Shown here: in pieces, positions 18,686 through 61,480 of the stretch
Position numbering within the stretch: the stretch's first letter is position 1
How the letters are laid out: the number at the start of each line of letters is the position of its first letter
Source of the DNA: Myxococcales bacterium
Lineage (GTDB): Bacteria; Myxococcota_A; Polyangia; Polyangiales; Polyangiaceae
Assembly (NCBI GenBank): GCA_016704525.1
Contig: JADIZX010000009.1
Span: forward strand, 170,625-234,445
Length of the DNA: 63,821 nt
Reading direction: 5' to 3'
Translations under genes and position numbers: made by a program
The notes under the pieces: model-generated
What the model saw: only the letters and a program-made list of their open reading frames with translations
Databases searched by the model: none
What the model was told of the DNA's origin: nothing

Positions 18686-18703
18686 TCGCGGAGGAGAGGA
18701 CCA

Positions 18704-19294
18704 ATGAGCTTCATCAACTACATGGCGCGCGAGATCAACTGCAAGTTGGTCTACTACGGCCCGGGCCTGTGCGGAAAGACCACGAACCTCCAGTACATCT
18801 ACGAGCGCACCAACCCCGACGCGAAGGGCAAGATGATAAGCCTCGCGACGGAGACGGAGCGCACGCTCTTCTTCGACTTCCTGCCGCTTTCGCTGGGCGA
18901 AATCCGCGGGTTCAAGACGCGCTTCCACCTCTACACGGTGCCCGGGCAGGTCTTCTACGACGCCTCGCGGAAGCTCATCTTGAAGGGGGTCGACGGCGTG
19001 ATCTTCGTCGCCGACTCGCAGATCGAGCGCACGGAGGCGAACCTCGAGTCGGTCGAGAACCTTCGCACCAACCTCGCCGAGCAGGGCTACTCGCTCGATA
19101 AGCTCCCGTATGTTGTACAATACAACAAACGCGACCTCCCCAACGTCGGCACCGTGGAGGAGCTCCGCGAGCTCATCAACCCCACCAACGTGCCGGATTT
19201 CGAGGCCGTGGCGCGCACCGGCGTGGGCGTGTTCGACACGCTGAAAGCCGTCGCGAAGCTCGTCCTCACCGAGCTGCGCAAGGGCGGCACCTGA
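18704..19294 (+). CDS. mglA: MglA, the mutual gliding-motility Ras-like small GTPase.
   Basis: MSFINY...[23 protein letters not shown]...[26 protein letters not shown] shows very high identity to M. xanthus MglA as recalled. Confidence 0.95.
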
Positions 19295-25430: not shown

Positions 25431-26546
25431 TCAGCCGAGGATCTCGAGCAGCGCCTGCACCGACGCGTTGATCTCTTCGTCGCGGATTCCGTAGAAGAGC
25501 GGCAGGTTGACCACGCTCTTGCAGAGGGCGCGCGAGTGCTCGAGCGTGCCGAACGGGATGGCCACGCCCTTCGTGGGCGGCTGCGCGTCCATGGGCTCGG
25601 GGTAGGTGCGGGCGGCGCCGATGCCCTTCGCCTTGAGCGCGTCGACGATCTCCTGGCCGCCGCGGCCCTGCACCGTGAACACGTTGAGGTAGCCGTTCTC
25701 GACCACGCCCGCCGGGGGGCCGTACACGCGCAGCTTGCCGTGGCTCGAGAGGCGCTCGCGGTAACGCTCGGCGGCAGCGCGGCGCGTGGACACGATCTCG
25801 GGGGCGAGCTCGAGCACGGCGTTCAAGAACGCCGCCTGCACGCCGCCCATGCGCGAGTTCCAGCCCACGTGAGCGTAGGCGTAGTGGTCGGCGCGGCCGT
25901 GGTTGCAGAGCGAGCGCACGAGCTTCTCCTGCTCGGCCGTCTGGAGGGTGATGGCGCCGCCGTCCATCGCGCCGCCGATGACCTTCGCCGGGTAGAACGA
26001 CAGCGTGCCTACCGTGGCCTTGGAGAGCACCGGCTCGCCCGCGACCTCGACACCGAAGCACTGCGCGCCGTCCTCGAGGAGGCCGATGTTGCGCTCCGCG
26101 CAGAACGCGCGGATGTCGGCGAGGCGGGCCGAAGCCCAGCCGTAGAGGTGCACGAGCGCCACGGCCTCGAAGCGGTGCGCCTCGTGGGCCTTCTTCAGCT
26201 CGTCGAAGCTGAGCTGGAGATCGTCGGGGTCGATGTCGACCAGCACCGGGATGGCGCCCAGCACGGCGACCGCCTCGTACGTGGCCCAGAACGTGAGGTT
26301 CGGGACGGCGACCTTCGTGCCCGCCTTCACGCCGAGCGCCTGGAGCCCGACGATGAGCGCGTCGGTGCCGTTGGCGCACGACACGGTCCGCGGCACCGCC
26401 AGGATCTTGGAGAGGTTCTGCTCCACGCGCGCGACGCCGGGGCCACCGACGAACTCGCAGCGATCGAGGCAGCCCTTCCAGGCGGCGTGGACGTCGGCGG
26501 AGACTTTCTGGGTAACGCGGGAGAGGTCGATGAAGGGTACTTGCAC
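25431..26546 (-). CDS. DegT/DnrJ/EryC1/StrS family sugar aminotransferase (PLP-dependent).
   Basis: Full-length fold type I sugar aminotransferase, with ...NGTDALIVGLQALGV... and ...SFYPAKVIGGAMDGGAI... Confidence 0.85.
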   Translation of the reverse strand: MQVPFIDLSRVTQKVSADVHAAWKGCLDRCEFVGGPGVARVEQNLSKILAVPRTVSCANGTDALIVGLQALGVKAGTKVAVPNLTFWATYEAVAVLGAIPVLVDIDPDDLQLSFDELKKAHEAHRFEAVALVHLYGWASARLADIRAFCAERNIGLLEDGAQCFGVEVAGEPVLSKATVGTLSFYPAKVIGGAMDGGAITLQTAEQEKLVRSLCNHGRADHYAYAHVGWNSRMGGVQAAFLNAVLELAPEIVSTRRAAAERYRERLSSHGKLRVYGPPAGVVENGYLNVFTVQGRGGQEIVDALKAKGIGAARTYPEPMDAQPPTKGVAIPFGTLEHSRALCKSVVNLPLFYGIRDEEINASVQALLEILG

Positions 26547-26691
26547 GAGGCGCTCCTTAGCATGGGGCGGCGGCGGCGCGCGAGGTGGCCGCCCACGGCT
26601 TCATTGAAAAAGGGTGGGGTCGGCGGCTTCGTTGCTCCCGGGGCCACCGGCGTTCGAGCGCTCCATGGGGCGCCACAAGAAAGAGCGTCTT

Positions 26692-27399
26692 ATGCTACGA
26701 GTTCGCGCCATGGGCGAGTCGTACGATCCGCAGAACGAGGCCGAGTTCGACGCCCACGCGGGCACCTACGCCGAGCTTCACGCCTCAAGCGTGAAGGCGA
26801 GCGGCGAGGACCCTGCGTACTTCTCGGAGTACAAGCAGAAGTGGCTTGAGCGCATGTTCAGCGCCGATCCGCGGCCGGTGCTCGACTTCGGGTGCGGCAT
26901 TGGCAACCTCACGCACCTGCTCGAGCGCTCGTTCCCTGTCGTACACGGCTTCGATCCCTCCAAGAAGAGCGTCGAGATGGCCCGCGAGCGCGCGCCTGGG
27001 GCCACCTTCTTCGACGACAAGGCGGGCCTCCCTCGAGACACCTACGGCACCATCGTGCTCGCCAACGTGCTCCACCACGTGCGGCCCTCGGACCGCGCCG
27101 ATCTCGTGGGCGAGCTCGCGAAGCTCCTCGCCCCGGGCGGGCGCCTCGTGATCTTCGAGCACAACCCTCTGAACCCCGTCACGGTGAACGCCGTGCAGGC
27201 CTGCGCGTTCGACGCTGACGCCGTGCTCCTCTTCCCGTGGGAGGTGACACGCCTGCTCGACGGCGCCGGGCTGACGAAGCGCAAGCTCGACTTCATCGTC
27301 TTCTTCCCGCGCCAGCTCGCGAGGCTTCGCCCGCTCGAGCCCTTCCTCGCGCGCGTCCCCGTTGGCGCGCAGGTGTGCGCGTGGGCCGAGCGGCGCTGA
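26692..27399 (+). CDS. Class I SAM-dependent methyltransferase.
   Basis: VLDFGCGIGNLT (motif I) and LVIFEHNPLNP. The start ATG 26692 follows AAGAAAGAG. The track ORF begins at GTG 26614. Confidence 0.75.
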   Translation: MLRVRAMGESYDPQNEAEFDAHAGTYAELHASSVKASGEDPAYFSEYKQKWLERMFSADPRPVLDFGCGIGNLTHLLERSFPVVHGFDPSKKSVEMARERAPGATFFDDKAGLPRDTYGTIVLANVLHHVRPSDRADLVGELAKLLAPGGRLVIFEHNPLNPVTVNAVQACAFDADAVLLFPWEVTRLLDGAGLTKRKLDFIVFFPRQLARLRPLEPFLARVPVGAQVCAWAERR

Positions 27400-27462
27400 A
27401 GAATCGGCGGCGTGACCTTCGAGCGACCCCGCGGATCCCGGGCGGCTGCGAGCCGCGCGCGC

Positions 27463-28647
27463 TCAGCGGTTCTTCTTGGCCAGGTCGGCGAGGCCGGCCG
27501 GCGCGGGCACGCCCATGACGGTCTTGGCTTCTGCGTCGGCGTTCGCGTCGGTCACGACGCGCGCCTTCGAGGGCTCGGGATCGTCGATCGACTCGACGGA
27601 CTGCTCGCCGAGGTAGGTGTGATCTTCACCGTCGGCCGTGTCGTCGGTGACGACCCGGGTGGCGGGCGGGTACATCGAGCTCGCCACGTCGAGCTCGCTC
27701 GTGTCGGGCGAGAGCGGCATGTTCTGCGTCTCGCGGAGCACGTAGAGCGGGCGCGCCTTCACCTGCTCGTAGATGCGACCCACGTACTCGCCGAGAATGC
27801 CAATCATCAGCAGCTGCACGGCAGCGAGCAGCGACACGAGCACGGTGACGGCGGTCCAGCCCGGGACGGTCGCGTCGAAGACGAACTTCGCGAGGACCGC
27901 CCACGCGGCCACGCCCACGGCGCCGACCGCGATGATCGCGCCCGCATAGGTGGCGAGGCGCAGCGGCAGGACGCTGAAGCTCGTGATGCCGTCAGCCGCG
28001 AACTTGAGCATCTTTCGCAGCGGGTATTTGGTCTCGCCCGCGAAGCGTCCCGCGCGGTCGTAGAGCACCGCGGTCTGCTTGAAGCCGACCCAGGAGACCA
28101 TGCCGCGCACGAACCTGTGCACCTCGCGGAGCTCGCGGAGGGCCACCACCACGCGGCGGCTCATGAGGCGGAAGTCGCCGGTGTCGAGCGGCACCTCGAT
28201 GGGGATCATCGCCGCGAAGAGCCGATAGAACCAGCGCGCGGTGAGCAGCTTGAACCACGTCTCGCCCGCGCGACTGCGGCGCTTGCCGTAGACGACGTCG
28301 TAGCCTTCGCGCCACTTCGCGACCATTTCGGCCACGACCTCGGGGGGGTCCTGGAGGTCGGCGTCCATGACCACGACAGCCTCGCCGCGCGCGTAGTCGA
28401 TTCCGGCGGTGATGGCGACCTGGTGGCCGAAATTGCGAGCAAAGCTCAGCACTTTGTAGCGAGGCTGCGCGCGCGCCATGTCGCGCAGGAGCCGGAGCGA
28501 GTCGTCCTTCGAACCGTCGTCGACGAAGATGACCTCGGTGTCGGCGGGCAGCTGCCCCATGAACTCCGTGAGACGCGCGCGGAGCTCCGGGAGGACCTCG
28601 GCCTCGTTGAAGATCGGGAGCACGAGGCTGAGGGTCGGTCGCTTCAT
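27463..28647 (-). CDS. GT2 polyprenyl-phosphate glycosyltransferase (ArnC/DPM1-like) with C-terminal TM helices and an acidic ~100-aa tail.
   Basis: Start MKRPTLSLVLPIFNEAEVLPEL...VIFVDDGSKDDS...VVVMDADLQDPPE. Two C-terminal TM helices are followed by a D/E-rich tail. Confidence 0.85.
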   Translation of the reverse strand: MKRPTLSLVLPIFNEAEVLPELRARLTEFMGQLPADTEVIFVDDGSKDDSLRLLRDMARAQPRYKVLSFARNFGHQVAITAGIDYARGEAVVVMDADLQDPPEVVAEMVAKWREGYDVVYGKRRSRAGETWFKLLTARWFYRLFAAMIPIEVPLDTGDFRLMSRRVVVALRELREVHRFVRGMVSWVGFKQTAVLYDRAGRFAGETKYPLRKMLKFAADGITSFSVLPLRLATYAGAIIAVGAVGVAAWAVLAKFVFDATVPGWTAVTVLVSLLAAVQLLMIGILGEYVGRIYEQVKARPLYVLRETQNMPLSPDTSELDVASSMYPPATRVVTDDTADGEDHTYLGEQSVESIDDPEPSKARVVTDANADAEAKTVMGVPAPAGLADLAKKNR

Positions 28648-28733
28648 CGAGGCGAGTGGGGTCCTAGCACGAAGTCTGGGGAATTCGGGGCGGGTTTCCT
28701 TGAGAACCGCCGCGCAGGCGGTAGGCTGAGCGC

Positions 28734-29459
28734 ATGAGAACCGATTCCGCAAGAGCTCGCGCGGCGCTCATCACGTCAACCCTCGCGGCGGCGACCGCCA
28801 TGCTCGTCGGCGCGTGCGACGGCTTCGTGAAGATCGACGACCCGAGCGACGCGGGCGGCGGGGCCGACGCGCAGCTCCCGCCCCCGGGGGCCGACGCGAC
28901 CCCCACGGCGGACGTCGGCGCGCCCGACACGCTCCCGCCGCCGCCGGACGCGACCTCCGACACGCTCCCGCCGCCGCCGGACGCCGGACCCGACGCGACC
29001 CCCGACGCCGCGCCGGACGCCACCCCCGACGCGACCCCCGACGCGACCCCCGACGCCGCGCCGGACGCCACCCCCGACGCCGCGCCCCCGGCGTGCACGC
29101 GGAACCCGGTCGCCGGCCAACCCTGCGGGCCGGGCGCCACCGCGTGCGGCGAGGTCGACATCTGCTGCAATGGCGGGGACAAGTTCCGCTGCACGGCGGG
29201 GATGTGGGAGCGCTACCCCTCCGGTATCCTCTGCCTCTTTTGCGCCGCCACGCCCTGCGGCACGCAGCGCTGCCTCGGTAGCCAGTATTGCCTCGAGCGC
29301 GACGACGTCGGCGGCACCGTCCACACCTGCGTCGACTACCCAGCGGCCTGCTCCGACAGCTGGACGTGTGGCTGCGTCGCGCCGCTCGTGCCCTCGTGCC
29401 CCGGGGCCACGTGCAAGGCCACCCCAGCCCATCACCTCACCATCGCCTGCCCGCCCTGA
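28734..29459 (+). CDS. Lipoprotein with a (PDATPDA)n low-complexity linker and a Cys-rich C-terminal domain.
   Basis: Lipobox ...AMLVGAC. The in-frame tandem repeat PDATPDATPDATPDAAPDATPDAAP spans ~29000-29090. The C-terminal domain holds 16 Cys. Confidence 0.6.
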   Translation: MRTDSARARAALITSTLAAATAMLVGACDGFVKIDDPSDAGGGADAQLPPPGADATPTADVGAPDTLPPPPDATSDTLPPPPDAGPDATPDAAPDATPDATPDATPDAAPDATPDAAPPACTRNPVAGQPCGPGATACGEVDICCNGGDKFRCTAGMWERYPSGILCLFCAATPCGTQRCLGSQYCLERDDVGGTVHTCVDYPAACSDSWTCGCVAPLVPSCPGATCKATPAHHLTIACPP

Positions 29460-29492: not shown

Positions 29493-30668
29493 TTATCGAC
29501 GGGCTGCTACTAGAGCGAGCAGCTCGGCGTAGACGTCGAGGGTGGCGCGGGCGACGTGACTTTGGTCGAAGTCGGCGAGCGCTATCTCGCGACCGCGGGC
29601 GCCCAGCCGAAGCCGCAGCTCCTTGTCCACGATGACCCGCCGGAGCGCGGCGGTCAGCGCGCGCGCGTCGCGAGGCGGCACCAGCAGCGCGTTCTCGTCG
29701 TGCCGCGCCACCTCTCGGCAGCCCGGCACGTCGGTCGACACGATCGCGCGCCCCGACGCCGCGGCCTCGAGCAGCGCCTTCGGGAGCCCCTCTCCGTAGG
29801 AGGGCAGGCACGTCACGTGCGATTCGCGATGCACGCGCTCCATGTCGTCGCGCCACCCGAGGGTCTCGACGAGACCCTCGCGCACCCACGCGGCCACCTC
29901 GTCCGACGTGATGGAGGCAGGGTTGCCAGGGTCGGGCTCGCCGACCAGCCCGAAGCGCGCGGCCAGGCCTTCGGCGCGGAGCGCACGGGCGGCCTCGACG
30001 AACTCCCGAACCCCCTTGTCCCTCAAGAGGCGCGCGGGGAGCACGACGAAACAGGGCCCTTCCGGCTCCGGGGCGGGCGCGAAGCGGGCGGTGTCGACGC
30101 CGGCGCCGCGGATGAGCACGACGCGATCGCGGCGCATGACTCCCCACGCGATCCACTTCTCGAGGTCGTCGGGGTTCTGGAGGATGGTGCGCGTGTTTGG
30201 GGACGTAAGCAGCGCCTTGTACGCGGTCTCGACCATGACGCGGATGGCGCGCGACAGCGGGTCCTTGTTCAGGAAGACATAGCCCATGCCGGGCATGGCG
30301 TTGACGATCGCGGGCACGCGGGCCGCCTTGGCGGCCACGGTGCCGTAGATCATCGGCTTGATCGCCACGTGGTGCACGACGTCGGGGCGCTCGCGCCGGT
30401 AGAGCTCGACGAGCCGGCGGGTGGTGTTGAGGTCGGAGAGGGGGTTTCGGCCCTGACGATCCATCACCACCGGCACGTGGCGGAGGCCGGCTGCCTCGAT
30501 CTGGGTCGTGTACGGCCCCGTGGGCGTGACGACCGTCACGTCGTATCCGGCGGCCTGCGCTGCGAGGCCGAGCGAGAGCCGATGGCACAGGAAGTACCAG
30601 TCGGAGGCGACGAGGAAGAGAAGGCGCGGCCTCCGTCCGTCCCGGAGCGGCGCCGGCATGGCGCTCAC
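29493..30668 (-). CDS. GT4 family glycosyltransferase.
   Basis: ...LPSYGEGLPKALLEAAASGRAIVSTDVPGCREV... is the GT4 EX7E region. Full length is ~390 aa. Confidence 0.85.
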   Translation of the reverse strand: MSAMPAPLRDGRRPRLLFLVASDWYFLCHRLSLGLAAQAAGYDVTVVTPTGPYTTQIEAAGLRHVPVVMDRQGRNPLSDLNTTRRLVELYRRERPDVVHHVAIKPMIYGTVAAKAARVPAIVNAMPGMGYVFLNKDPLSRAIRVMVETAYKALLTSPNTRTILQNPDDLEKWIAWGVMRRDRVVLIRGAGVDTARFAPAPEPEGPCFVVLPARLLRDKGVREFVEAARALRAEGLAARFGLVGEPDPGNPASITSDEVAAWVREGLVETLGWRDDMERVHRESHVTCLPSYGEGLPKALLEAAASGRAIVSTDVPGCREVARHDENALLVPPRDARALTAALRRVIVDKELRLRLGARGREIALADFDQSHVARATLDVYAELLALVAARR

Positions 30669-30841
30669 GCAGGCCTCCGGCGGCGGCGCTCTGCGGGTGC
30701 GCGGGCCGACATGTCCGAGGCGTCGAGCTGCATGCCAGAGCGGATATCAGCGTGCTTACGCAAAAGAAATGTAAATCCGAGCGCTTTCGGGCACGGGTTT
30801 GAGGTGCCCTGCCGCGGGCAGCGGGTAGTGTCGGGCGAGCC

Positions 30842-31747
30842 GTGCCGCGCGCCCCGCGCCCCGCGCCCGCCCCCAACGAACGGGAGACCCTATGCCTTCG
30901 TCGTCGTCGCCCGCGCCGCAGCATCTTCTCCGTCGACGTGGAGGACTGGTTCAACACGATGCGGAACGAGCCCAAGCCCTCGGACTGGGACACGATCCCC
31001 TCGCACGTGGAGAAGAACCTGCGAAGGTTCCTCGACCTGTTCGACGAGACGGGCACGAAGACCACGTGCTTCTTCCTCGGCTACGTCGGCCGGCGCTTCC
31101 CCGACCTCGTGAAGGAGACCGCGGCGCGGGGCCACGAGATCGCGTCGCACGGGTTCTTCCACAGCTGCATTTACGATCTCACCCGCGAGGCCTTCCGTAA
31201 GGACATCGCGGAGTCGAAGAAGGTCCTCGAGGACGCGGCGGGCAAGGCGGTCAAGGGCTACCGGGCGCCAGGCTTCTCCGTCGACCAGCGCTCGCCGTGG
31301 TTCTTCGAGGAGCTCGCCGCCGCCGGCTACGAGTACGACAGCTCGGTGTTCCCCGCGCCGCACCGCACGGGCGGCATGCGCACGAGCAAGCTCTTCCCCC
31401 ACGTGATGGACCTCGGGGGTGGCGCGAAGCTCACCGAGTTTCCCATCACGGCGGTCGACGTGCTCGGCAAGCCGATGTGCTTCTTCGGCGGCGGGTACCT
31501 GCGCCTGTTTCCGTACGAAGTGATCCGGCACATGAGCCGCCGCGTCCTCGACGAGGAGCGACCGGTTGTATATTACATTCACCCGCGCGAGATCGATCCG
31601 CACCACCCGCGCTCGCCGATGAAGCCCCTCGCGAAGTTCAGCGCCTACGTGAACCTCGCGTCCACCGAGCCGAAGGTGCGACAGCTCTTGCGCGACTTTC
31701 CGTCGACGAGCTTCGAGGGCTATCTGCGCGACCACCCGGTGTCGTAG
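30842..31747 (+). CDS. Polysaccharide deacetylase family protein (DUF3473-type).
   Basis: ...SIFSVDVEDWFN...TTCFFLGYVGRRFP...GHEIASHGFFH... A GTG start was inferred. An Arg-rich ~27-aa N-terminal extension makes the start uncertain. Confidence 0.75.
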   Translation: MPRAPRPAPAPNERETLCLRRRRPRRSIFSVDVEDWFNTMRNEPKPSDWDTIPSHVEKNLRRFLDLFDETGTKTTCFFLGYVGRRFPDLVKETAARGHEIASHGFFHSCIYDLTREAFRKDIAESKKVLEDAAGKAVKGYRAPGFSVDQRSPWFFEELAAAGYEYDSSVFPAPHRTGGMRTSKLFPHVMDLGGGAKLTEFPITAVDVLGKPMCFFGGGYLRLFPYEVIRHMSRRVLDEERPVVYYIHPREIDPHHPRSPMKPLAKFSAYVNLASTEPKVRQLLRDFPSTSFEGYLRDHPVS

Positions 31748-36880: not shown

Positions 36881-38632
36881 TCAGGCCGCGCGCTTTCCCA
36901 GACGCCGCATCGCGACGGCGGAGCCGACGAGCCCGAGCGCCGTGAGCACGAAGCCGAGCGTGAGCCCGTGGGGCCAGTAGCGCAGCGTGACGTGGTGCCG
37001 ACCGGCCGGGAGGTCGAGAACGAGGAGCTTGCCCTCGTCGGCGAGCGTCCCCACGTCGGTGCGCCAGCCGCGATCGTAGGTGCCGTTCACGAGCACGCGC
37101 GAGGGCTGGTCGGCCACCACGTCGAGGGTGAAGGTGTTCTGCGTGCGGCGGACGGTCTCCACCCGCGCCGCCGCGCCGGGCGCGGGCCTCGCCTGAGGCA
37201 CGTCACCGTCCCACATCGGGGCGCCGGCGCCGAAGCCCCACTCGTCCCAGCAGGCGAGGCGCATGCGGTTCTGCCGGGGCTGATCGATCATGCCGGCGAG
37301 GTTCGGGCCGTGAACGTAGAGCCGCGCCGAGGGCGCCACGCGCTGCTCGGGCGCGTTGCCGAAGCACACCTGAAACCAGTCGATCCCGACGGCGATCATG
37401 TCGCCCGCGCCGACGAGCGCGAGGCCGAGGGCGACCGTGCGCACCGCGCGCGTGGGGTGCCCGGGGAGGAGCGCCGCGAGCTTCGGGAGCCTGTCGACCG
37501 CGAGCCCGGCGAACAGGGCGAGGAAGAGCGACACCTCGCAGCGAAACCTGGAAGGCACACGCATTTCCTTGAACGGGAACACGTGGCCCTTGAGCACGGC
37601 CCACGGCGCGAGCGGCGAGAAGTGCCCCATCATCAGCACGAAGGCCACGCCGAAGAGGAGCACGAGCCACGGCGCCTCGAACGCGGCGAAGAGCAGGCCC
37701 ACGCACGCCAGCGCGAACAGGAACGGCCCCAGGTACGTGCCGTACTCGGGCCACACGTAGCTCTGCCCCGGCACGCCGCGCGCGTGGGTGCGCGAGAGGA
37801 ACATGTCGCGGAGGGTCTCCCACTGGATGTGGTCGTTCTCGACGCCGATGGGGCGCACGTGGCTCCGGAGCTGGTCCATCACGGGCAGAAAGCGCGACGC
37901 GCCCACGGTGAAGCCCACGACGAGCACGACCGCGGCGGCCCGCGCGATGGGCACGAGAGAGCGCTTGTTCAGCCGGGTGAGGGTCTCGACGAAGAGCAGC
38001 ACGAGCAGGTGCGGCAGCGGGTAGACGGCGCCCTCGTACATCATCCACGCCACCAGCCAGCCGAGGGCCACGGCGTGGCGGAGATCGCGCTCGGCGCGCC
38101 GCCACAAGAGGAACGCGAGCGGGAAATACAGGAAGGGGACGAACGTGAAATGCCCACCCGAGTAGTGCTGCTGGTGAAAGCCCGAGAACGCCCAGCCCAC
38201 GCTCGCCACCAGGGTGCCGGCGCGCGAAAGCTTCACCTCGTCGCGGGCGAAGAACCACATCGACGCGAAGCCCATCGCCGAGTGGAGCAGGTACCAGAGC
38301 ACCATGGCGGCGGTGGTGCCGATGAGGAACATGGGCCACACGAGCGGCGCGCCCACGGGCGCCTGGGGGTTGTCCCACAGGGGCAGCCCGCCGCACTCGT
38401 AGGGATTCCAGAGAGGCAGCTCGTGATACCGCACGAGGCTGACGCGCGCGGCCTCGAGGGTCTTGTGGTACGGCGGGCCGTCGCCGCCTTGGGTGTTCGG
38501 GTACGCGGCCAACATGGGCCACCACGCGAAGACCGCGAGCACGAGGCCCACCAGGGTGACTCCGACGGCGCGGCGGAGCGGCGCGCGGCCGAACGCGGGC
38601 GAGGGCGACGGCGAGGGCTCGGCGATCTTCAC
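36881..38632 (-). CDS. Polytopic integral membrane protein with a C-terminal periplasmic domain (YfhO/GT-C-like, putative glycosyltransferase).
   Basis: GTG start with a GGAGACC RBS. It overlaps the upstream gene's stop (GTGA). There are ≥10 predicted TM helices and a ~200-aa C-terminal soluble domain. Function is not recognisable from sequence. Confidence 0.6.
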   Translation of the reverse strand: MKIAEPSPSPSPAFGRAPLRRAVGVTLVGLVLAVFAWWPMLAAYPNTQGGDGPPYHKTLEAARVSLVRYHELPLWNPYECGGLPLWDNPQAPVGAPLVWPMFLIGTTAAMVLWYLLHSAMGFASMWFFARDEVKLSRAGTLVASVGWAFSGFHQQHYSGGHFTFVPFLYFPLAFLLWRRAERDLRHAVALGWLVAWMMYEGAVYPLPHLLVLLFVETLTRLNKRSLVPIARAAAVVLVVGFTVGASRFLPVMDQLRSHVRPIGVENDHIQWETLRDMFLSRTHARGVPGQSYVWPEYGTYLGPFLFALACVGLLFAAFEAPWLVLLFGVAFVLMMGHFSPLAPWAVLKGHVFPFKEMRVPSRFRCEVSLFLALFAGLAVDRLPKLAALLPGHPTRAVRTVALGLALVGAGDMIAVGIDWFQVCFGNAPEQRVAPSARLYVHGPNLAGMIDQPRQNRMRLACWDEWGFGAGAPMWDGDVPQARPAPGAAARVETVRRTQNTFTLDVVADQPSRVLVNGTYDRGWRTDVGTLADEGKLLVLDLPAGRHHVTLRYWPHGLTLGFVLTALGLVGSAVAMRRLGKRAA

Positions 38633-40512
38633 TTGCAGGTCTCCGGGGCGACGGCGCCGGCGAGCGCCGCGTGCCGGGCGGCCTCGGCGTCCAGCGCCAT
38701 GCTCTTCTCGAGCGCCGCGAGCCGGAGGTAGCCGCAGGGCGCGTGCGTCTTGCCGACCCGCTCGCGCAGCTTGGCGATGCGGTCGCGGCCCGCGGGCTCC
38801 CACACCTCGGCGAAGTACCGGCGCGTGGCCACCCCGCCGTCGGTGCCCTCCTCGGGGCCCGGCTCGCTGAACGCGGGGACGAGGGCGAGGCCCGCGACGA
38901 CCAGGCCGCCCGCCGCGCGCCCCACGCGGCGCGCCCAGGTCTCGCGCGGGGGCGGCGCGAAGACCAGCAGCGAGCCGCAGGCGAGCGCGCCCGCGAGCAC
39001 CACGAGGTAGCCAAAAGTCGGCGAGGAAACCCCTGCGAGATCAAGGAGATGGCGAGGCACAAAGCCCGCGCGCAGCAGCGGCAGCGCGACCTCCGGGAGC
39101 GGCCGCCCCACGGTCTCGGGGAGCGTGTTGCACAGCACCGACACGAGGCCGGTCTGCGCGGCGCTCGCGAGGGCGGCGCCAGCCGCGAGGGCCCTCACCC
39201 ACACTCGACGTGAGCGGCGCCCCCGCGCGAGCTGCTCTTGGGCGGTCACGGCGCCGAGCACGAGGAAGGCGGGGCACGCCCCGAGGTACCTCGGGCCCAC
39301 GGTCCACCCGCCACGCCAGTTGATGGCGGCGCTCACGGTGAGCACGAGCACACCGCAGGCGGCGAGCCACACGAGCGTGGCGCCGCGGCGAGCCCCGCGG
39401 CTCCGCGGACCGCCGAACCCCGAGAGCACGCCGAACGGCACGACGAGGAGGCCGAGCCACAGATAGGGGCTCGTGCCGAAGAGCCCGTAGCCGCGGTTGA
39501 AGAGGAGGCTGCCCGCGTGCCCGAGATCGGGCGTCTGGATACCGAAATAGCCCTGGTTGAGCAGCCGCGCGAACTCGCCGTTTTCGCTCATGCGGTGGCC
39601 CGGCGTGAGGGGGCTGCCGAACGCGCGCCACTGGAAGAACGCCATGAGCGCGACGTGGAGGAGTCCGCCGCCTGCGAGCGCGGCGAACGGCCCCACCCGT
39701 CGGCGATGGAAGGACGGCCTGAAGGTGACCGCGGCGTAGAGCGCGAGCACCACCGACACCGGCAGCGCGTGGTACTCGAGCAGCGTGACCCACCCGGCGC
39801 AGAAGCCGGCGACGAACGCGTCACGCGCGGTGCGGTCTCGCGACGGCGTGGTGCGGGCGCGCGCCGTGACGGCGAACGACACGAAGGCGGCGACGGCGAA
39901 GAGCGCGTGGCTCGCGAACATGAGGGCGTACGCGAGGTAGTTCGTGCCGAGCCCCAGCGCGGCCACGGCGGCCAGGCGGAGCACCGGATCGCGGGTCGTC
40001 GCGCGCAGATAGCGCTCGAGCCACACGAGGAACGCCAAGCACGGGAGCTGCACGCTGAAGAGACGCAGCGCCCACGTGGCGTCGGCGAGCCAGCGCGCGC
40101 GCGCTTCGGGCGGCGAGCGGAGCGTGGGTACCGGGCGGCCGAGCCGTGGCATCACCTTCGTGAAGGCCCAGTAGACCGGCACTCCGGCGTAGCTCACCGC
40201 GGGCGCCTTCACCGAGTAGAGGTGGAACACGCCGGTCTTCTGGTCGGGCGCCCGCGCCATGTCGTTGGTCCAGCCGTGGCGGTCGACCATCGCGTCGATC
40301 TTGAACGTGCCCTCCTCGACCAGGGCCATGGTCATGTAGGTGCGCACGTTCTCGTTCGGGTTGTTGATGACCCCGATGTACGGGAACACGCCGACATAGA
40401 CGACGAGCAGGAGCGCGAAGAACGCGCCCACGAACCCTGGCGTCTTGACGTTCCGAGCGCCCACCCCGACCCGTGTATCACCTCGCGCGTGTGTGTGTGT
40501 AGGCCGACTCAC
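38629..40512 (-). CDS. Polytopic integral membrane protein (GT-C/PMT-ArnT-like architecture, putative glycosyltransferase).
   Basis: GTG start overlapping the stop of the amidotransferase (GTGA). Many TM helices. The first extracytoplasmic loop holds the acidic motif ALVEEGTFKIDAMVDRHGW. Confidence 0.55.
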   Translation of the reverse strand: MSRPTHTHARGDTRVGVGARNVKTPGFVGAFFALLLVVYVGVFPYIGVINNPNENVRTYMTMALVEEGTFKIDAMVDRHGWTNDMARAPDQKTGVFHLYSVKAPAVSYAGVPVYWAFTKVMPRLGRPVPTLRSPPEARARWLADATWALRLFSVQLPCLAFLVWLERYLRATTRDPVLRLAAVAALGLGTNYLAYALMFASHALFAVAAFVSFAVTARARTTPSRDRTARDAFVAGFCAGWVTLLEYHALPVSVVLALYAAVTFRPSFHRRRVGPFAALAGGGLLHVALMAFFQWRAFGSPLTPGHRMSENGEFARLLNQGYFGIQTPDLGHAGSLLFNRGYGLFGTSPYLWLGLLVVPFGVLSGFGGPRSRGARRGATLVWLAACGVLVLTVSAAINWRGGWTVGPRYLGACPAFLVLGAVTAQEQLARGRRSRRVWVRALAAGAALASAAQTGLVSVLCNTLPETVGRPLPEVALPLLRAGFVPRHLLDLAGVSSPTFGYLVVLAGALACGSLLVFAPPPRETWARRVGRAAGGLVVAGLALVPAFSEPGPEEGTDGGVATRRYFAEVWEPAGRDRIAKLRERVGKTHAPCGYLRLAALEKSMALDAEAARHAALAGAVAPETCK

Positions 40513-41264
40513 GCGACGCGGCGGAGGTGGCGCGGCGCGTGCTCGATCTTGGTTTCGGGGGCGCGGTCCATGCGGATCAGCGCGCCTTCCTCGACGAGCG
40601 CCCAGGGCTCGCTCGTGAGCTGTTCGGAGGCCACGATGGCCTCACCGTTCGGGCGCTCGAGCAGGAACATGCTCCGTCCGAAGCGGTGGGCGTAGGTGCT
40701 CTCGCCGTCGGACAGGAGAAAGTTGAAGGCGCCCATCCCCGGGCGGGCGCGGAGCTCGGCGCAGGTCTCGGCGACGAGGCGATCGGTGGCGGCGCTCGCC
40801 GGGGCGCCGGTGAGGCCCACCTCGTCGAGGCGGGTGAGGAGGAAGGCGAACAAGCGCTCGCTGTCGGTGTCGCCCCGGACCTCGTCGGCGCGCTCGGGCG
40901 CGGTGTGCGCGCGTAGATAAGCCACGTCGGTCACCGTGCCGTTGTGCGCGAAGACCCACCGGCCTTGGGCGCAGGCGAAAGGGTGCGTGTTCTCGAGCGA
41001 CGTCGGGCCCACGGTCTTCTGGCGAATGTGCCCGATGAGCACCGACGCGCGGGTGGCCGCCGCCAGCGCCCGAAAGCGCACGCAATCGAGCGCCCGCTCG
41101 ACCCCACGGTGGACCTCCCAGGCGCGTCCGCGCGGCTCGAAGAGCGCGACCCCCCAGCCGTCCGGGTGCTCGCGGGAGAGCTCGGCGAGGCTCCGCGGCC
41201 CCGCCTGGAGACAGGCCCGAAGCTCGACCGCTTGAGCGGCGACCATGGCGAGAAACCTGCACAT
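40509..41264 (-). CDS. Class II (Ntn-type) glutamine amidotransferase domain protein (YafJ/EgtC-like).
   Basis: Start MCRFLAMV, with the Cys2 nucleophile right after Met. ...GWGVALFE...HIRQKTVG...NTHPF...FAHNG matches GATase_6 features. Confidence 0.7.
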   Translation of the reverse strand: MCRFLAMVAAQAVELRACLQAGPRSLAELSREHPDGWGVALFEPRGRAWEVHRGVERALDCVRFRALAAATRASVLIGHIRQKTVGPTSLENTHPFACAQGRWVFAHNGTVTDVAYLRAHTAPERADEVRGDTDSERLFAFLLTRLDEVGLTGAPASAATDRLVAETCAELRARPGMGAFNFLLSDGESTYAHRFGRSMFLLERPNGEAIVASEQLTSEPWALVEEGALIRMDRAPETKIEHAPRHLRRVA

Positions 41265-41358: not shown

Positions 41359-42066
41359 TCAGTGCGCCGGGTAGCTCGGAGCCGCGGGCGCGAGGCGAGG
41401 ATCGAGGGTGACCTTCACCGTCGAGTCGGCGAGCGCGAGATCGATCGAGGCACACTGCTTGGCCTCCACGCCGACCCCCTCGGCGTGGTCCGCGAGCTTC
41501 CCGAGGGCGGTGTACTCTCGATCCGCCGCCTCGGCGTCTCGCCGCGCGAGGGCGTCGCGGATCGCGGGCGCCCGCGCATCGGCGGCGCGGATCGCCACGT
41601 TGAGCTGCGTGAGCTTCTCGGTGAGGCACGCGGTGACCACGAGGTCGCGATCACGGCGGGCGCGCTGGAGGCGCCTGCGGACGAGCGTCGACTGAGCTCG
41701 CATGCGGTCGAGGCGACGCTGCGACTCGGTGAGCTGCTCCTCCGGCGTGAGGCGTGTCTTCTTGTGCGCCGCCTCGGCTGTGGCTGTGACCACGGGTGTC
41801 GCCTCCGCGGCCTGCGGGCGAGGTGCGACGGTGGCCGGCGGTGTGGGCCGGGCAGCCGGCTCGGCCGGCGGCGCGGGGCTTGGCGGGGCAGGCGGGGCAG
41901 GCGGGGCAGGCGGGGCAGGCCGGGCAGGCGGGGAAGGCTGGGAAGGCTGGGAAGGCGTGGTCGCGACGTGCGCGGCGGACGCGGGCGGCGACGCGAGCGC
42001 CAGCGCCCCGTGTCCCACGAGCACGGCGGCGACCAGCACCCCGAGGAGGAGGCTCTTCGTCTTCAT
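41359..42066 (-). CDS. Secreted Pro-rich, coiled-coil protein (hypothetical).
   Basis: Start MKTKSLLLGVLVAAVLVGHGALALA (signal peptide). A (PAPPAPP)n region is encoded by a (GGCGGGGCA)n repeat. The rest is a helical C-terminal domain. Confidence 0.5.
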   Translation of the reverse strand: MKTKSLLLGVLVAAVLVGHGALALASPPASAAHVATTPSQPSQPSPPARPAPPAPPAPPAPPSPAPPAEPAARPTPPATVAPRPQAAEATPVVTATAEAAHKKTRLTPEEQLTESQRRLDRMRAQSTLVRRRLQRARRDRDLVVTACLTEKLTQLNVAIRAADARAPAIRDALARRDAEAADREYTALGKLADHAEGVGVEAKQCASIDLALADSTVKVTLDPRLAPAAPSYPAH

Positions 42067-57539: not shown

Positions 57540-58553
57540 CTAGAAGCGACCGAGCAGCGCGCCGCCCGCGCCGCCGGGGCCCACGACAGGCACGAGGCTG
57601 ACGCGATCTCGCTCGCGCGGGTTCGGCGTAGCCCACGGGCGCAGCACGAGCGCCGACACCACCGCGGCGCCCAAGAACACGCCGCCGCCAACGTAGCCAA
57701 CGATCGACCCCGTGCCGAGGCCCGACGCCTTCGACGCGGCGTCCTCGAGGGGCTGGCAGCCGGGCGCCCCGGGCCGAGGGCAGGGCGCGCCGACGCTGAG
57801 GAGCCGGAGCTCGTCGTCCGAGCTGGCCGACATCGCGCCCATCACCGCGCCCGCCCCGAGGCCGGCGACGCCGACCACGCCGAGCACCACGGGCACCGTC
57901 CACGAAGCCCCGGCTTCGCGCTCCGCGGGAGGCGGCGATGGCGGCGGCGGCGACGTGTCGCCCTCGAGCGCGACCACCACCGTGCGCTCGGCGGGGCACG
58001 CCACGGGGCGCTTTCGCCGGCGCTGGCCGAAGGTCACGACGACCTCGTGCGGTCCGGCGAGCACCGCGATGGGGTCGGCGAGCGGGGCCTCGCCCGCGAC
58101 GACGCCGTCGACGCGCACCTGGGTCCCGCGCGGCGTGCCCGGCGCGAGAGTGATGAGGCTCACCTTCGCGCCGAGGTCCGCGAAGAGCTTCTTGGCGAGC
58201 GTGGTGTGCGCGGGATCGGTCTGCGGCAGCTTCAGGAACTCGCGAAAGTGGTGGTACGCGCCGAGCACGTGGCCTACGCGGTGCTCGGCGCGCGCGAGGT
58301 TGAACAGCACGTCGGGCTCCTTCAGGACCGCCCACGCCTGCGCGTACTTGAGCCTCGCCTGCTCGTGCTCGCCGCGCCCCCAGAGCGCGTGGCCCTCGTC
58401 GAACCGCTGCTTGGCCTCTGCGCTGAACGCATCCTCGGCGCGGGCCTCGGCGCCGCCCGCCGCCAAGGTGACGAGCCCCACGGTCAGCCCGAGCGCCGCC
58501 CGGACGAGCCACGTGCGCGCTCGCGTCCTCGCTTGCGCTTCACGCTCGCTCAC
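57540..58553 (-). CDS. PEGA-domain membrane protein with an N-terminal TPR-like helical region. It is the last gene of the tandem-lipoprotein operon.
   Basis: GTG start overlapping the stop of tandem copy A (GTGA). Signal peptide, PEGA-like block VSLITLAPGTPRGTQVRVDGVVAGEAPL...VVTFG, and a TM helix. Confidence 0.65.
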   Translation of the reverse strand: MSEREAQARTRARTWLVRAALGLTVGLVTLAAGGAEARAEDAFSAEAKQRFDEGHALWGRGEHEQARLKYAQAWAVLKEPDVLFNLARAEHRVGHVLGAYHHFREFLKLPQTDPAHTTLAKKLFADLGAKVSLITLAPGTPRGTQVRVDGVVAGEAPLADPIAVLAGPHEVVVTFGQRRRKRPVACPAERTVVVALEGDTSPPPPSPPPAEREAGASWTVPVVLGVVGVAGLGAGAVMGAMSASSDDELRLLSVGAPCPRPGAPGCQPLEDAASKASGLGTGSIVGYVGGGVFLGAAVVSALVLRPWATPNPRERDRVSLVPVVGPGGAGGALLGRF

Positions 58554-60035
58554 GGCGCCACCTCCAGCTCGGACTGCGACAGCCCCGCGGGGCCGTCATT
58601 CACTCCCGCCGCTCCGCCTACGCCTCCCGCTCCCCCGGCTCCTGCCTTCAGCGTCCCGTCTCCCGTCGGCTTCGTTCCCTTGTAGACTACAGCTACCGAG
58701 ATCCCGCCCGCTCCGCCCGCTCCCGCTCCGCCCGCTCCGCCCTTCCCGCCGTCTCCCCCGCCGCAGCCCGGCGTTCCGCCACCGGCCACCCCACCAAGTC
58801 CGCCCCCGCCCCCGTACCCCCGGTACCCCCGGTACCCCCGGTACCCCCGGTACCCCCGGTACCCCCGGCAGCGGCCGTGAGCGTCACGTTCGTCATCGTC
58901 ACGTTCGAGCTCACGCTCAGCAGCGCGATGCTCCCGCCTCCGCTCTTGCCCCCCTTCCCTCCCGTACCCCCGCATCCCCCGCAGGCGCCTCCGCCTCCAA
59001 AGCTGTCCGCTCCGCGTGAGCCTCCGCCCCCGCCACCTTGACCGGGCAGTCCGCTCGCTCCCGCGGGCGCCTCCGACGGCGTCCACTCCCCGCTCCCGGA
59101 TATCCCTCCCGGCGTCGTCACCTTCGCAGCTGGCGCTCCCTCGGCTCGCTCTGCTCCGGTGTTCCCCGAGCCGTTCGGCTCCGCAGCTACGCACCTCGCC
59201 AGGCCGACTCCACCCGCTCCGTCGGTCGGCGCGACCCCCGCCCAGCGCCTCGCCTCCAGGGCTCGCCAATAGCCAGGGGCTCCACCTCCACCTCCACCGG
59301 ACGCCCCCGAGCTGCACGTGCACGGCTTCGCCGCTCCCCCGCGCTCGCGCTCGCGGGGTTCCCGTTCCCGTTCCCCGTCGCGTACGTCCCTGTCGTCCCG
59401 CCCGCTCCAGCCTCCCCAGCGAATCCACCCTTCGCCTCCACTCCCACCTTCCGAAGGCTCACCTTCACCGCCTCCACAGCCCACACTCCCACGCTCGTAC
59501 GCGACCCCGCCGTCCCCGCCGCTCCTTCGATGTCCAGCTCCGCCAGCGTCGCCGTCACCTTCCCCACCTTCACCGCGTACTCGGGCTTCGTCCCCACCAC
59601 CTTCGCTCGCCCTCCAGCCTTCCCGAAGTCGCACGTCACTCCCGAGTACACCTCCACGTCGCTCTTCACCTCCACGCTCTCCGCGTACGTCCCCTCGCAC
59701 ACCACCACCCGCCCGCGACCCGCAGAGAGCCCCTTCCCCACCGTCTTGTAGGGCTTCGTCCTCGTCCCGGGGTTCCCGTCGTCCCCACTCGGCGACACGT
59801 ACACTCCGTAGCTGTCCACTAGGCACTTCTCAGGGTTCTTCACTGGCTCGTTCGGCGTCTCGCACCCGGGCGGAACCACCACGTCCACTCCCCCGTCCAC
59901 CGACCCCTCCCCGACCCCGCCCTCTCCCACCCCTCCGTCCGAAGCCTCCGTCACGTAATAGTTGTTCGTCGTGCACCCCGACCCCGAAACCAGGCCCGCC
60001 AGCACGAACGCGCACAGCGCCACCCCCGGCCTCAC
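58550..60035 (-). CDS. Gly-rich beta-helix lipoprotein, tandem copy A. The reading frame is interrupted at least twice.
   Basis: Lipobox ...LAGLVSGSGC. The N-cap is VYVSPSGDDGNPGTRTKPYKTVGKGL...VVVCEGTYAES. Then Gly-rich repeats, a (GGT)n tract encoded by (GGTACCCCC)5, and the C-terminus ...SELEVAP. The good segments lie in 3 different frames (track ORFs 59187..60080, 58693..59826, 58550..59428). Confidence 0.55.
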
Positions 60036-61480
60036 GGCGCCACCTCCAGCTCGGACTGCGACAGCCCCGCGGGCCGTCATTCACTCCCGCCGCTCCGCCT
60101 ACGCCTCCCGCTCCCCGGCTCCTGCCTTCAGCGTCCCGTCTCCCGTCGGCTTCGTTCCCTTGGCACTACAGCTACCGAGATCCCGCCCGCTCCGCCCGCT
60201 CCCGCTCCGCCCGCTCCGCCCTTCCCGCCGTCTCCCCCGCCGCCGCCCGGCGTTCCGCCACCGGCCACCCCCCCAGGTCCGCCCCCGCCCCGGTACCCCG
60301 GTACCCCCGGTACCCCGGTACCCCGGCAGCGGCCGTGAGCGTCACGTTCGTCATCGTCACGTTCGAGCTCACGCTCAGCAGCGCGATGCTCCCGCCTCCG
60401 CTCTTGCCCCCCTTCCCTCCGTACCCCCGCATCCCCGCAGGCGCCTCCGCCTCCAAAGCTGTCCGCTCCGCGTGAGCCTCCGCCCCCGCCACCTTGACCG
60501 GGCAGTCCGCTCGCTCCCGCGGGCGCCTCCGACGGCGTCCACTCCCCGCTCCCGGATATCCCTCCCGGCGTCGTCACCTTCGCAGCTGGCGCTCCCTCGG
60601 CTCGCTCTGCTCCGTCATGACCAAGGCCACCTGAACCGCAGGCCATCCCCGCCAGGCCTCCCGCGCCGTCTTTCGGCGCCACTCCGCCGAGCGCCTCGAG
60701 CCCGCTCCCAGCCGTATCCAATGGAGCGCCGCCTCGGGCCCCAGCGGTCACGCCTCCCGAGCTGCACGTGCACGGCTTCGCCGCTCCCCCCGCGCTCGCG
60801 CTCGCCGGGTTCCCGTTCCCGTTCCCCGTCGCGTACGTCCCCGTCGTCCCGCCCGCTCCAGCCTCCCCAGCGAATCCACCCTTCGCCTCCACTCCCACCT
60901 TCCGTAGGCTCACCTTCACCGCCTCCACAGCCCACACTCCCACGCTCGTACGCGACCCCGCCGTCCCCGCCGCTCCTTCGATGTCCACGTCGCTCAGCGT
61001 CGCCGTCACCTTCCCTATCTTCACCGCGTACTCTGGCTTCGTCCCCACCACCTTCGCTCGCCCTCCAGCCTTCCCGAAGTCGCACGTCACTCCGAGTACA
61101 CCTCCACGTCGCTCTTCACCTCCACGCTCTCCGCGTACGTCCCCTCGCACACCACCACCCGCCCGCGACCCGCAGAGAGCCCCTTCCCCACCGTCTTGTA
61201 GGGCTTCGTCCTCGTCCCGGGGTTCCCGTCGTCCCCACTCGGCGACACGTACACTCCGTAGCTGTCCACTAGGCACTTCTCAGGGTTCTTCACTGGCTCG
61301 TTCGGCGTCTCGCACCCGGGCGGAACCACCACGTCCACTCCCCGTCCACCGACCCCCCCGACCCCGCCCTCTCCCCCCTCCGTCCGAAGCCTCCGTCACG
61401 TAATAGTTGTTCGTCGTGCACCCCGACCCCGAAACCAGGCCCGCCAGCACGAACGCGCACAGCGCCACCCCCGGCCTCAC
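60032..61480 (-). CDS. Gly-rich beta-helix lipoprotein, tandem copy B, with multiple frame interruptions.
   Basis: Near-identical to copy A. It differs mainly in C/G homopolymer lengths and has (GGTACCC[C])4. Its stop overlaps copy A's GTG start, and its own start overlaps copy C's stop. Confidence 0.5.

Follow-up and report, generated by a model that had tools for sequence, protein, structure and literature searches.

Two predicted GT-C-fold glycosyltransferases encoded side by side in a Polyangiaceae genome, and their probably unrelated amidohydrolase-like neighbor

We analyzed a stretch of 63,821 nucleotides from a Myxococcales bacterium (hereafter, the window) and found two adjoining genes, G2 and G3, for polytopic membrane proteins with a predicted GT-C fold. 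They probably (about 0.65) carry out the transfer step in the periplasm for a myxobacterial glycosylation pathway with several components, of the CsbB/YfhO, Pgf, Gtr or Arn type, to which the neighboring amidotransferase-like gene G1 would be unrelated. The G2 family is repeatedly paired with a YfhO-like GT-C protein and a PgfS/ArnC-like lipid-sugar synthase across Polyangia.

G1, G2 and G3 are co-directional open reading frames on the minus strand, located as originally predicted, and each has coding-type codon bias (GC3 0.87–0.91). The positions of these genes and of the sugar-related genes in the window are summarized in Table 1. A GTGA overlap had been predicted at both junctions, and one of the two stood. 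At the G2/G3 junction (...AAGTGAAG...), the GTG at 38632 overlaps the G2 stop codon TGA at 38629–38631, and G3 opens with 20 codons whose GC3 is 1.0. As read from the sequence, the 4-nt overlap is plausible, and it probably allows co-translation of G2 and G3.

The G1/G2 overlap is an artefact of open reading frame extension. The longest G2 frame is open back to a GTG at 40512, and this 5′ extension is the spacer between G1 and G2. The GC3 of the first 16 codons from that GTG is 0.50, compared with 0.93 downstream. In the alignment with the 91–92% relatives, GAGGTGAT-N13-GTG at window position 40464 is kept, and the 78% relative (L046) has an ATG at the position aligned to this GTG. The spacer alignment contains an indel of approximately 68 nt, and the Shine-Dalgarno sequence and start of G2 are conserved. 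Public gene calls give G2 a length of 605–611 aa. Because of the drop in GC3, the conserved Shine-Dalgarno sequence and start in the relatives and the lengths of the public calls, 40464 is the most likely start. The true G2 thus most likely begins 44 nt past the G1 stop codon, and the spacer is probably untranslated. Apparent GTGA overlaps arise easily in the window, where GTGA ends 5 of the 24 TGA-terminated genes and at least 16 open codons follow 87% of the GTGA sites. A promoter scan from 36.5 to 42.3 kb detected no sigma-70-like sites. A terminator scan of the same region gave terminator-like sites on the plus strand only (two, against a mean of 1.5 in shuffled sequences), and none was predicted between G1 and G2.

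Table 1 Positions of the G1–G3 genes and of the sugar-related genes in the window.
Feature	Position	Strand	Description
G1	40509..41264	-	Stand-alone class-II (Ntn, Cys2) glutamine-amidotransferase-like protein, 251 aa
G1-G2 spacer	40465..40508	-	44 nt; (AC)6 run and Shine-Dalgarno-like GAGGTGAT
G2	38629..40464	-	GT-C-fold polytopic glycosyltransferase (predicted), 611 aa counted from the conserved GTG
G3	36881..38632	-	GT-C-fold polytopic glycosyltransferase (predicted), 583 aa, distantly YfhO-like
GT2 polyprenyl-phosphate glycosyltransferase, PgfS/ArnC/GtrB/CsbB type (putative donor-forming partner)	27463..28647	-	Pfam Glycos_transf_2; C-terminal TM segments
Class-I SAM methyltransferase (putative accessory)	26614..27399	+	Pfam Methyltransf_23/25/12/11
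DegT/DnrJ/EryC1-type sugar aminotransferase (putative partner)	25431..26546	-	Pfam DegT_DnrJ_EryC1, E 6e-66

The AlphaFold model of G2 matched only GT-C glycosyltransferases (ALG12, ArnT and PMTs). The TM-scores of the structural matches of the predicted models were modest, at 0.39–0.46. G2 had been described as a protein of ~627 aa with an acidic first loop; the length is most likely 611 aa, and the loop is present, as ALVEEGTFKIDAMVDRHGW (residues 63–81) lies directly past the first TM helix. In this part of the protein, the motif NNPNENVRTY...E...D...ND follows TM1, and all 22 sequences compared share E54, D73 and D84, just past the helix at 26–41. At its C-terminus, G2 carries a small TPR-like helical domain, in which two Cys residues do not vary. 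With a modelled polytopic GT-C-fold core and conserved acidic residues in the first extracytoplasmic loop, G2 is classified in the GT-C superfamily.

When 22 members of the G2 family and 10 distant relatives, the latter from a search of 1.8 billion proteins, were scanned with Pfam, no family was assigned and the only match was a single marginal one to DUF2079. The match of G2 to NCBIfam NF047440 (LA_3751/LA_3752 putative glycosyltransferase) was partial (residues 160–423) and scored 59.8 bits, where the cutoff is 200. When sequence profiles of G2 and G3 were searched against every PDB chain, nothing meaningful was found (E 0.53). The G2 family is matched by 3,614 clusters (50% identity) at E ≤ 1e-3 and still by 412 at the stricter E ≤ 1e-30; it is mostly named "hypothetical" in the sources, and the clusters of distant relatives are all named "hypothetical protein". 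G2 is a member of a large family that lacks a Pfam model and has a confident predicted GT-C fold.

G3 has an exact match of 583 aa in a public collection (P0121), in agreement with the length predicted for it. The AF2 model (pLDDT 79, pTM 0.86) was matched by Foldseek, at a probability of 1.00, with AftA (3e-5), PglB (4e-5), STT3 (STT3A), ArnT and AftD; like that of G2, it matched GT-C glycosyltransferases only. G3 has three invariant acidic residues in the first loop after TM1 (D51, E71 and D87) and a nearly invariant one (E79). This acidic loop, together with the modelled fold, places G3 in the GT-C superfamily as well. The result supports annotation of both genes as GT-C glycosyltransferases.

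G3 scored 20.0 bits against the Pfam YfhO profile (PF09586; cutoff 28.5), and the match was confined to its C-terminus (profile positions 756–835). YfhO was matched at E ≤ 0.01 by 18 of 25 G3 relatives (best, 1.3e-7), and several relatives carry a precomputed PF09586 match. The original prediction had ascribed a GT-C/YfhO-like topology to both membrane proteins. The GT-C part agrees with the AF2 models and Foldseek matches of both, and the YfhO part applies, distantly, to G3 and not to G2, which gave no YfhO signal. A C-terminal periplasmic domain had also been described for G3, with a size of ~200 aa. The domain is present but is smaller, approximately 130 aa (residues ~425–556), and consists of a low-confidence linker and a ~70-aa beta-sandwich (~481–552), after which a terminal TM helix (557–582) follows.

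We compared the gene order around G2 in about 40 independent loci with a G2 identity of 39–92%, and neighbors were counted over 36 of them. Two linkages are conserved, G2–G3 and G2–GT2. In 15 of the 36 loci, no more than 3 kb separates G3 from G2, and in at least 11 loci (43–78% identity) the two genes are adjacent, co-directional and separated by 200 nt or less. The commonest neighbor of G2 is a PgfS/ArnC-like GT2; an orthologue of the PgfS-like GT2 (68–86% identity) is found within 3 kb in 13/36 loci, as a rule adjacent to G2 and divergent from it; it is divergent at 200 nt or less in six loci and co-directional with G2 in two. Orthologues of the methyltransferase and DegT genes lie within 10 kb of G2 in five and six of the 36 loci, respectively. 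Epimerases, methyltransferases, lectin or CBM proteins and more large membrane proteins also recur near G2 in the relatives. Approximately one third of the loci with 10-kb flanks have neither G3 nor a PgfS-like GT2 near G2.

The 69% relative (L005) has a contiguous DegT–methyltransferase–GT2–G2–G3 arrangement. In the window, the DegT–methyltransferase–GT2 block is intact at 25.4–28.7 kb. The link to a nearby sugar cluster that had been suggested for G2 and G3 was thereby confirmed, as these three genes are the recurrent neighbors of G2 in other genomes. The GT2 of the window is ~8.2 kb from G3 in a different orientation, and its pairing with G2/G3 rests on the other genomes; a GT2 synthase is encoded with the GT-C gene in 13 of the 36 related loci and ~8 kb away in the window. 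The DegT gene scored below the cutoffs of the NCBIfam LegC and PseC types, and its company suggests an amino-sugar donor. A Thr/Pro-repeat secreted open reading frame (28734..29459) is located near GT2. We considered whether this protein could be the substrate that is glycosylated; since the relatives do not keep the gene beside GT2, such a role is speculation only.

We propose the following scheme. Since a PgfS/ArnC-like GT2 is the commonest neighbor of G2, we infer that G2 and G3 use a lipid-phosphate-linked sugar donor. [quoted passage not shown] This sugar may be an amino and/or methylated one, because the DegT and methyltransferase genes travel with the module. The lipid-monophosphate sugar would then be flipped across the membrane. 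A crude hydropathy scan for a GtrA/ArnEF-type flippase (open reading frame of 80–230 aa with at least three hydrophobic segments) gave no candidate, either in the window or close to the locus in 12 relatives' loci. According to the predicted folds, G2 and G3 would use the acidic residues after TM1 to pass the sugar on to an acceptor in the periplasm or at the outer surface, with E54, D73 and D84 of G2 and D51, E71, E79 and D87 of G3 as candidate catalytic residues. Candidate acceptors are a polysaccharide, LPS or a protein. To our knowledge, extracytoplasmic glycosylation by GT-C enzymes has been little studied in myxobacteria; G2, G3 and GT2 offer a testable way into periplasmic glycosylation in this group, the target of which could be LPS, exopolysaccharide or secreted proteins.

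Several known systems resemble this scheme in part. The Pgf system of Streptococcus mutans (pgfS-pgfM1-pgfE-pgfM2) consists of a GT-A/GT2 lipid-sugar synthase and two large GT-C transferases; a 4-epimerase is often present, and the transfer is extracytoplasmic (PMC5856776, PMC11092751). The GT2 of the window aligned end to end with NCBIfam PgfS (profile positions 3–305 of 308, E 3e-82), epimerase genes recur near G2 in the relatives, and the C-terminus of G3 weakly matches PgfM2 as well as YfhO. However, the equivalog cutoffs were missed by a wide margin by both PgfS (276 vs 500) and PgfM2 (15.5 vs 1500), so the resemblance is architectural only. The host here is a diderm myxobacterium, the partners are DegT and a methyltransferase, and no adhesin genes are linked.

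In the CsbB-GtcA-YfhO systems of teichoic-acid glycosylation in Bacillus and Listeria, a GT2 makes a C55-P-sugar and a YfhO-type GT-C protein transfers the sugar outside the membrane (PMC5836110, PMC8035078). The relationship of G3 to YfhO is distant: it has ~580 aa against the 835 positions of the Pfam profile, and the match is limited to the C-terminal part; no GtcA/GtrA-type flippase was found nearby, and a second, non-YfhO GT-C protein (G2) is present. We know of no teichoic acids in myxobacteria, unlike in the hosts of CsbB-GtcA-YfhO.

The GtrA/GtrB/GtrV and GT136 pentofuranose systems of Gram-negative bacteria use a polyprenyl-phosphate sugar synthase, a flippase and a GT-C enzyme, and act in the periplasm after polymerization (PMC11127046). 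The proposal for G2, G3 and GT2 follows the same logic. It differs in that the GT-C families are others and the enzymes are two, no flippase was found, and there is no O-antigen or prophage context. The scheme was also compared with the ArnB-ArnC-ArnT pathway (lipid A aminoarabinose). GT2 matched NCBIfam ArnC over the full length (E 3e-50) at 171 against an equivalog cutoff of 529. An ArnB match in the window scored 96.8 against 631. The window yielded no ArnA, ArnD or ArnE/F, and G2 matches ArnT at the fold level only, without a sequence-level match.

A tentative alternative, which we consider possible, is that G2 and G3 are GT-C transferases of separate pathways, each with a GT2 of its own, and that their adjacency reflects the clustering of glycan genes. 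G2 would then act with the PgfS-like GT2, the methyltransferase and DegT, and G3 with a GT2 of ~245 aa and a methyltransferase of ~250 aa. Such a small GT2 and methyltransferase are indeed directly beside G3 in three loci (L009, L010 and L047), where the PgfS-like GT2 is beside G2. Many loci have G2 without G3, and the two proteins are unrelated in sequence, as their families gave an hhalign probability of 1.7% and are not detectable paralogues. The close co-directional arrangement in at least 11 loci, with a 4-nt overlap here, argues against such a division. In addition, the pair of small GT2 and methyltransferase genes that the 92% relative has was not found in the window, and Pgf is a precedent for two GT-C enzymes in one pathway (PMC5856776). 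It is highly improbable that G2 and/or G3 has a GT-C-like fold without being a glycosyltransferase, either as a scaffold or transamidase-type subunit like PIG-U/GAB1 or as a polymerase- or ligase-like protein. The top-scoring structural matches are catalytic GT-C enzymes, the invariant acidic residues are in the first external loop, where the catalytic residues of GT-C enzymes are situated, and the association with a polyprenyl-phosphate sugar synthase GT2 is persistent.

G1 starts with the ATG at 41264 and, as predicted, is a Cys-nucleophile class II protein of about 250 aa beginning with MCRFLA. It matched Pfam GATase_4 (PF13230) with 114 bits (cutoff 23; E 7e-33), and M1-C2-R3 is invariant in 15 homologues; NTHPF, FAHNGT and GxTDSE are invariant as well. 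Of the class-II (Ntn) GATase domain, G1 thus keeps the Cys nucleophile at the N-terminus along with the HNG and TDSE motifs. The nearest solved structures are 1te5, 3mdn and EgtC (4zfj), EgtC being the third best, and the score against the EgtC equivalog (TIGR03442) was 81.6 bits, under the cutoff of 218.65. No fused or partnered synthase (acceptor) domain was found; G1 is a single-domain protein with no conserved partner gene across the contexts examined. By its sequence, G1 appears to be intact and to belong to the stand-alone Ntn amidohydrolases of the YafJ/EgtC/DUG3 type; like YafJ/PA1307 (1te5), EgtC and DUG3, it has this fold, a Cys nucleophile at the N-terminus and a single domain. It differs from the EgtC/DUG3-type amidohydrolases in that no ergothioneine or glutathione-degradation genes adjoin it.

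The unusual part of the original prediction was an amidotransferase welded to two GT-C proteins as one unit, in which G1 would supply ammonia or process an amide on a sugar, lipid carrier or acceptor. We regard this as unlikely. The three genes share a strand, only 44 nt without a terminator-like site separate G1 from G2, three relatives retain the G1–G2 order (down to 72–78% identity), and the active-site residues of G1 are intact. However, the overlap is an artefact, the spacer is 112 nt and 165 nt in relatives, and G2 has its own Shine-Dalgarno sequence. G1 has no synthase or acceptor domain, and its characterized stand-alone relatives are gamma-glutamyl amidohydrolases (EgtC; DUG3, PMC12653102). 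G2 and G3 are themselves parted and inverted in the 92% relative. G1 adjoins G2 in 3 of the ~40 independent loci (L004/L047, L007 and L046), all with at least 78% G2 identity. The adjacency is absent from the 69% relative (L005) and at least 30 further loci, including every locus with a G2 identity of 69% or less. Lack of conservation of the three-gene linkage had been named in advance as evidence against the unit, and the linkage was essentially not conserved beyond one narrow clade. On inspection, the unusual part vanishes and no new kind of system is left.

Because the adjacency is limited to a clade, the spacers vary while G2 keeps its own Shine-Dalgarno sequence and start, and orthologues occur in unrelated contexts, G1 is most likely a functionally unrelated neighbor of G2 and G3. 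Co-transcription of G1 with G2 in this clade is possible, given their common direction, the short spacer and the lack of a predicted terminator. That G1 was recruited to the GT-C pair in this clade and, being co-transcribed, adds an amide-forming or amide-cleaving step to periplasmic glycosylation is very unlikely; we know of no described combination of an amidohydrolase with a GT-C pair in periplasmic glycosylation. For G1 as a bystander, a recent rearrangement in this Polyangiaceae clade may have parted G2 from its usual GT2 neighbor and put G1 beside it. Orthologues of G1 with 51% and 69% identity stand alone elsewhere, and one orthologue is located 270 kb from a G2 homologue on the same contig.

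Three minus-strand ORFs with a coding-type codon bias occupy positions 36881..41264: a class II (Ntn) glutamine amidotransferase (GATase)-like gene (G1) and the genes for two GT-C-fold membrane proteins (G2 and G3). The G+C content of the window is 72%, and among public sequences it is closest to those of uncultured Polyangiaceae and Myxococcales. The original prediction described these genes as a translationally coupled operon with GTGA overlaps at both junctions. This held for G2/G3, where the sequence ...ACCTGCAAGTGAAGATC... indicates that the GTG at 38632 shares 4 nt with the TGA of G2. The first 20 codons of G3 have a GC3 of 1.0, and a public record (P0121) is a 583-aa protein identical to G3. 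The G1/G2 junction likewise reads GTGA, but an overlap there is contradicted by GC3 and by a kept start. The GTG at 40512 is unlikely to be the G2 start, as GC3 is 0.50 over the 16 codons after it and 0.93 thereafter. The 91–92% relatives keep an SD-like GAGGTGAT and a GTG aligned with window position 40464, where the 78% relative has ATG, and identical or related G2 proteins are publicly called at 605–611 aa. From the codon bias, the kept SD and start, and these calls, G2 most likely encodes 611 aa and starts 44 nt past G1. In the window, GTGA ends 5 of the 24 TGA-terminated genes and at least 16 open codons follow 87% of GTGA sites; a chance look-alike is cheap. The spacer upstream of G2 differs by a ~68-nt indel between the window and the 91–92% relatives, indicating a fast-changing junction. 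G1 starts with the ATG at 41264 (MCRFLA...); the 14-codon extension in its longest ORF has a GC3 of 0.50, versus 0.91 within the gene.

Features of the window discussed in the text
Feature	Position	Strand	Description
MglB/MglA-like pair	18122-19294		Roadblock/LC7 protein and small Ras/Arf-like GTPase; local G+C lower, 65%
DegT-MT-GT2 block	25431..28752	-/+/-	DegT-type sugar aminotransferase, methyltransferase, GT2; intact
GT2	27463..28752	-	PgfS/ArnC-like
Repeat ORF	28734-29459	+	GC3 0.93; (PDAT/PDAA)n Thr/Pro-rich repeat, then Cys-rich C-terminal region; divergent from GT2
Exopolysaccharide-type module	29493-31747		Between GT2 block and G2/G3
G3	36881..38632	-	GT-C-fold membrane protein
G2	38629..40464	-	GT-C-fold membrane protein; most likely extent
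G1-G2 spacer	40465-40508		Contains (AC)6 run
G1	40509..41264	-	GATase-like
ORF upstream of G1	41359-42066	-	235 aa; MKTKSLLL..., hydrophobic signal-like N-terminus, Pro/Ala/Ser/Thr-rich region
Tandem units	58549-62900	-	Three copies; probable genes 58693..59826, 60128..61276, 61523..62497

Loci with a G2 homologue were gathered (38 genome loci and 5 contig loci), and neighbour homologues were located by tblastn and clustering of called ORFs. G2 and G3 have hundreds of homologues each, nearly all in Polyangia and Myxococcota. G1 adjoins G2 only in the paired loci L004/L047 (92% G2 identity), L007 (91%), and L046 (78%). L005, which comes next in identity (69%), has the order DegT(-) MT(+) GT2(-) G2(+) G3(+) without G1, and G1 was absent within 10 kb of G2 at every collected locus below 69% identity. 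Other G1 orthologues lie in unrelated neighbourhoods; one is flanked by aconitase and M10 peptidase, with a G2 homologue 270 kb off on the same 535-kb contig (L042), and another (L044, 69% identity) by a metalloenzyme and a kinase. The 92% relative has its G2 and G3 split and the G3 inverted, so the exact triad is unstable even within the clade. The proposed coupling of an amidotransferase to the GT-C pair was thus not borne out: G1 stands beside G2 only in relatives of at least 78% identity, and beyond this narrow clade the three-gene linkage is essentially not conserved.

In the L047 region 4692-10039, the genes that part G2 from G3 encode a GT2 of 244 aa and a methyltransferase of 247 aa, and a 555-aa ricin-B lectin protein lies past G3; none of these three occurs in the window. 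The ORF upstream of G1 had no match in a family search and is kept in the 91–92% relatives only.

G1 itself is a single-domain protein (Pfam GATase_4, E 7e-33) in which M1-C2-R3, HNG, and TDSE-type motifs are invariant among homologues. Among solved structures it is closest to 1te5 and 3mdn, both structural-genomics proteins, and then to the amidohydrolase EgtC; the NCBIfam cutoff for an EgtC equivalog was not reached.

G2 is instead recurrently linked to G3 and to a lipid-sugar-synthase-type GT2. Of 36 informative loci, 15 have G3 no more than 3 kb from G2, and at 12/40 loci the distance is at most 500 nt; the linked loci cover 39–92% G2 identity. GT2 is the commonest neighbour family (23 loci by clustering). 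In 13/36 loci, a close orthologue of the window GT2 (68–86% identity) is found no farther than 3 kb from G2; six of these are divergent within 200 nt and two are co-directional. The window GT2 aligns end to end with the PgfS (E 3e-82) and ArnC (E 3e-50) models and bears C-terminal hydrophobic segments, the architecture of polyprenyl-phosphate sugar synthases (GtrB, CsbB, ArnC, PgfS). Its DegT-MT-GT2 block is the one abutting G2 in L005, which suggests that a rearrangement parted G2-G3 from the block and left G2 beside G1. The surroundings of G2 also repeatedly hold UDP-glucose-4-epimerase-like genes and methyltransferase genes of two kinds, along with genes for an F5/8-type-C (CBM-like) membrane protein, for a ricin-B lectin protein, and for more large polytopic proteins.

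The product of the repeat ORF beside GT2 could be a glycosylation substrate; the ORF is not conserved beside GT2 in relatives. In the adjacent module, a GT4 glycosyltransferase that matches PEP-CTERM/XrtA-system glycosyltransferases below threshold adjoins a polysaccharide deacetylase of the XrtA system (TIGR03006, 284 bits versus a cutoff of 276).

Pfam gave zero matches for G2, 21 relatives, and 10 distant relatives, and the sole NCBIfam match of G2, the LA_3751/LA_3752 putative glycosyltransferase family, was sub-threshold. The AlphaFold model was confident (pLDDT 86, pTM 0.89), and Foldseek was consistent with a GT-C fold. Directly past TM1, where GT-C enzymes have catalytic acidic residues, lies the invariant motif NNPNENVRTY...E...D73...N83-D84. 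This uncurated GT-C family, with 3,614 clusters at 50% identity (E<=1e-3), is the element of most interest in the system. The G3 model (pLDDT 79, pTM 0.86) matched AftA, PglB, STT3A, ArnT, and AftD, and has a beta-sandwich (~481-552) and a terminal TM helix. Past TM1, D51, E71, and D87 are invariant and E79 is nearly so. Pfam YfhO matched 18/25 relatives, and window G3 below threshold at the C-terminus only, suggesting that G3 is distantly related to YfhO. No sequence relationship was detectable between the G2 and G3 families.

[quoted passage not shown] The closest match is the S. mutans pgfS-pgfM1-pgfE-pgfM2 operon, whose GT-A enzyme PgfS, two YfhO-type GT-C enzymes, and epimerase O-glycosylate disordered Ser/Thr-rich regions (PMC5856776, PMC11092751). 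The window proteins did not reach the NCBIfam score thresholds for these specific families; the system would work like them but, judged by these scores, is an orthologue of none.

The predicted GT-C folds with their structural matches, the acidic first-loop residues kept in aligned G2 and G3 homologues, and the recurrent linkage of these genes to GT2 and to one another support the glycan-modification reading of the original prediction. GT2 would make an undecaprenyl-phosphate sugar, possibly amino or methylated in view of the DegT and methyltransferase genes. A flippase would flip it (a crude hydropathy-based scan found no candidate in the window or near the locus in 12 related loci), and G2 and G3 would pass the sugar to a periplasmic or surface acceptor. 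G2 and G3 may act sequentially on one acceptor or in parallel pathways. In L009, L010, and L047, G3 has a small GT2 and a methyltransferase of its own, which would fit parallel pathways; we regard these as the less likely alternative.

Elsewhere in the window, an MglB/MglA-like pair was noted. The three tandem copies of a ~1.45-kb unit are 95–100% identical over stretches, each holding C-rich 9-nt micro-repeats (CCGCCCGCT, CCCCGGTAC), with a strongly negative GC skew (-0.29 to -0.39); they are probably paralogous minus-strand genes.
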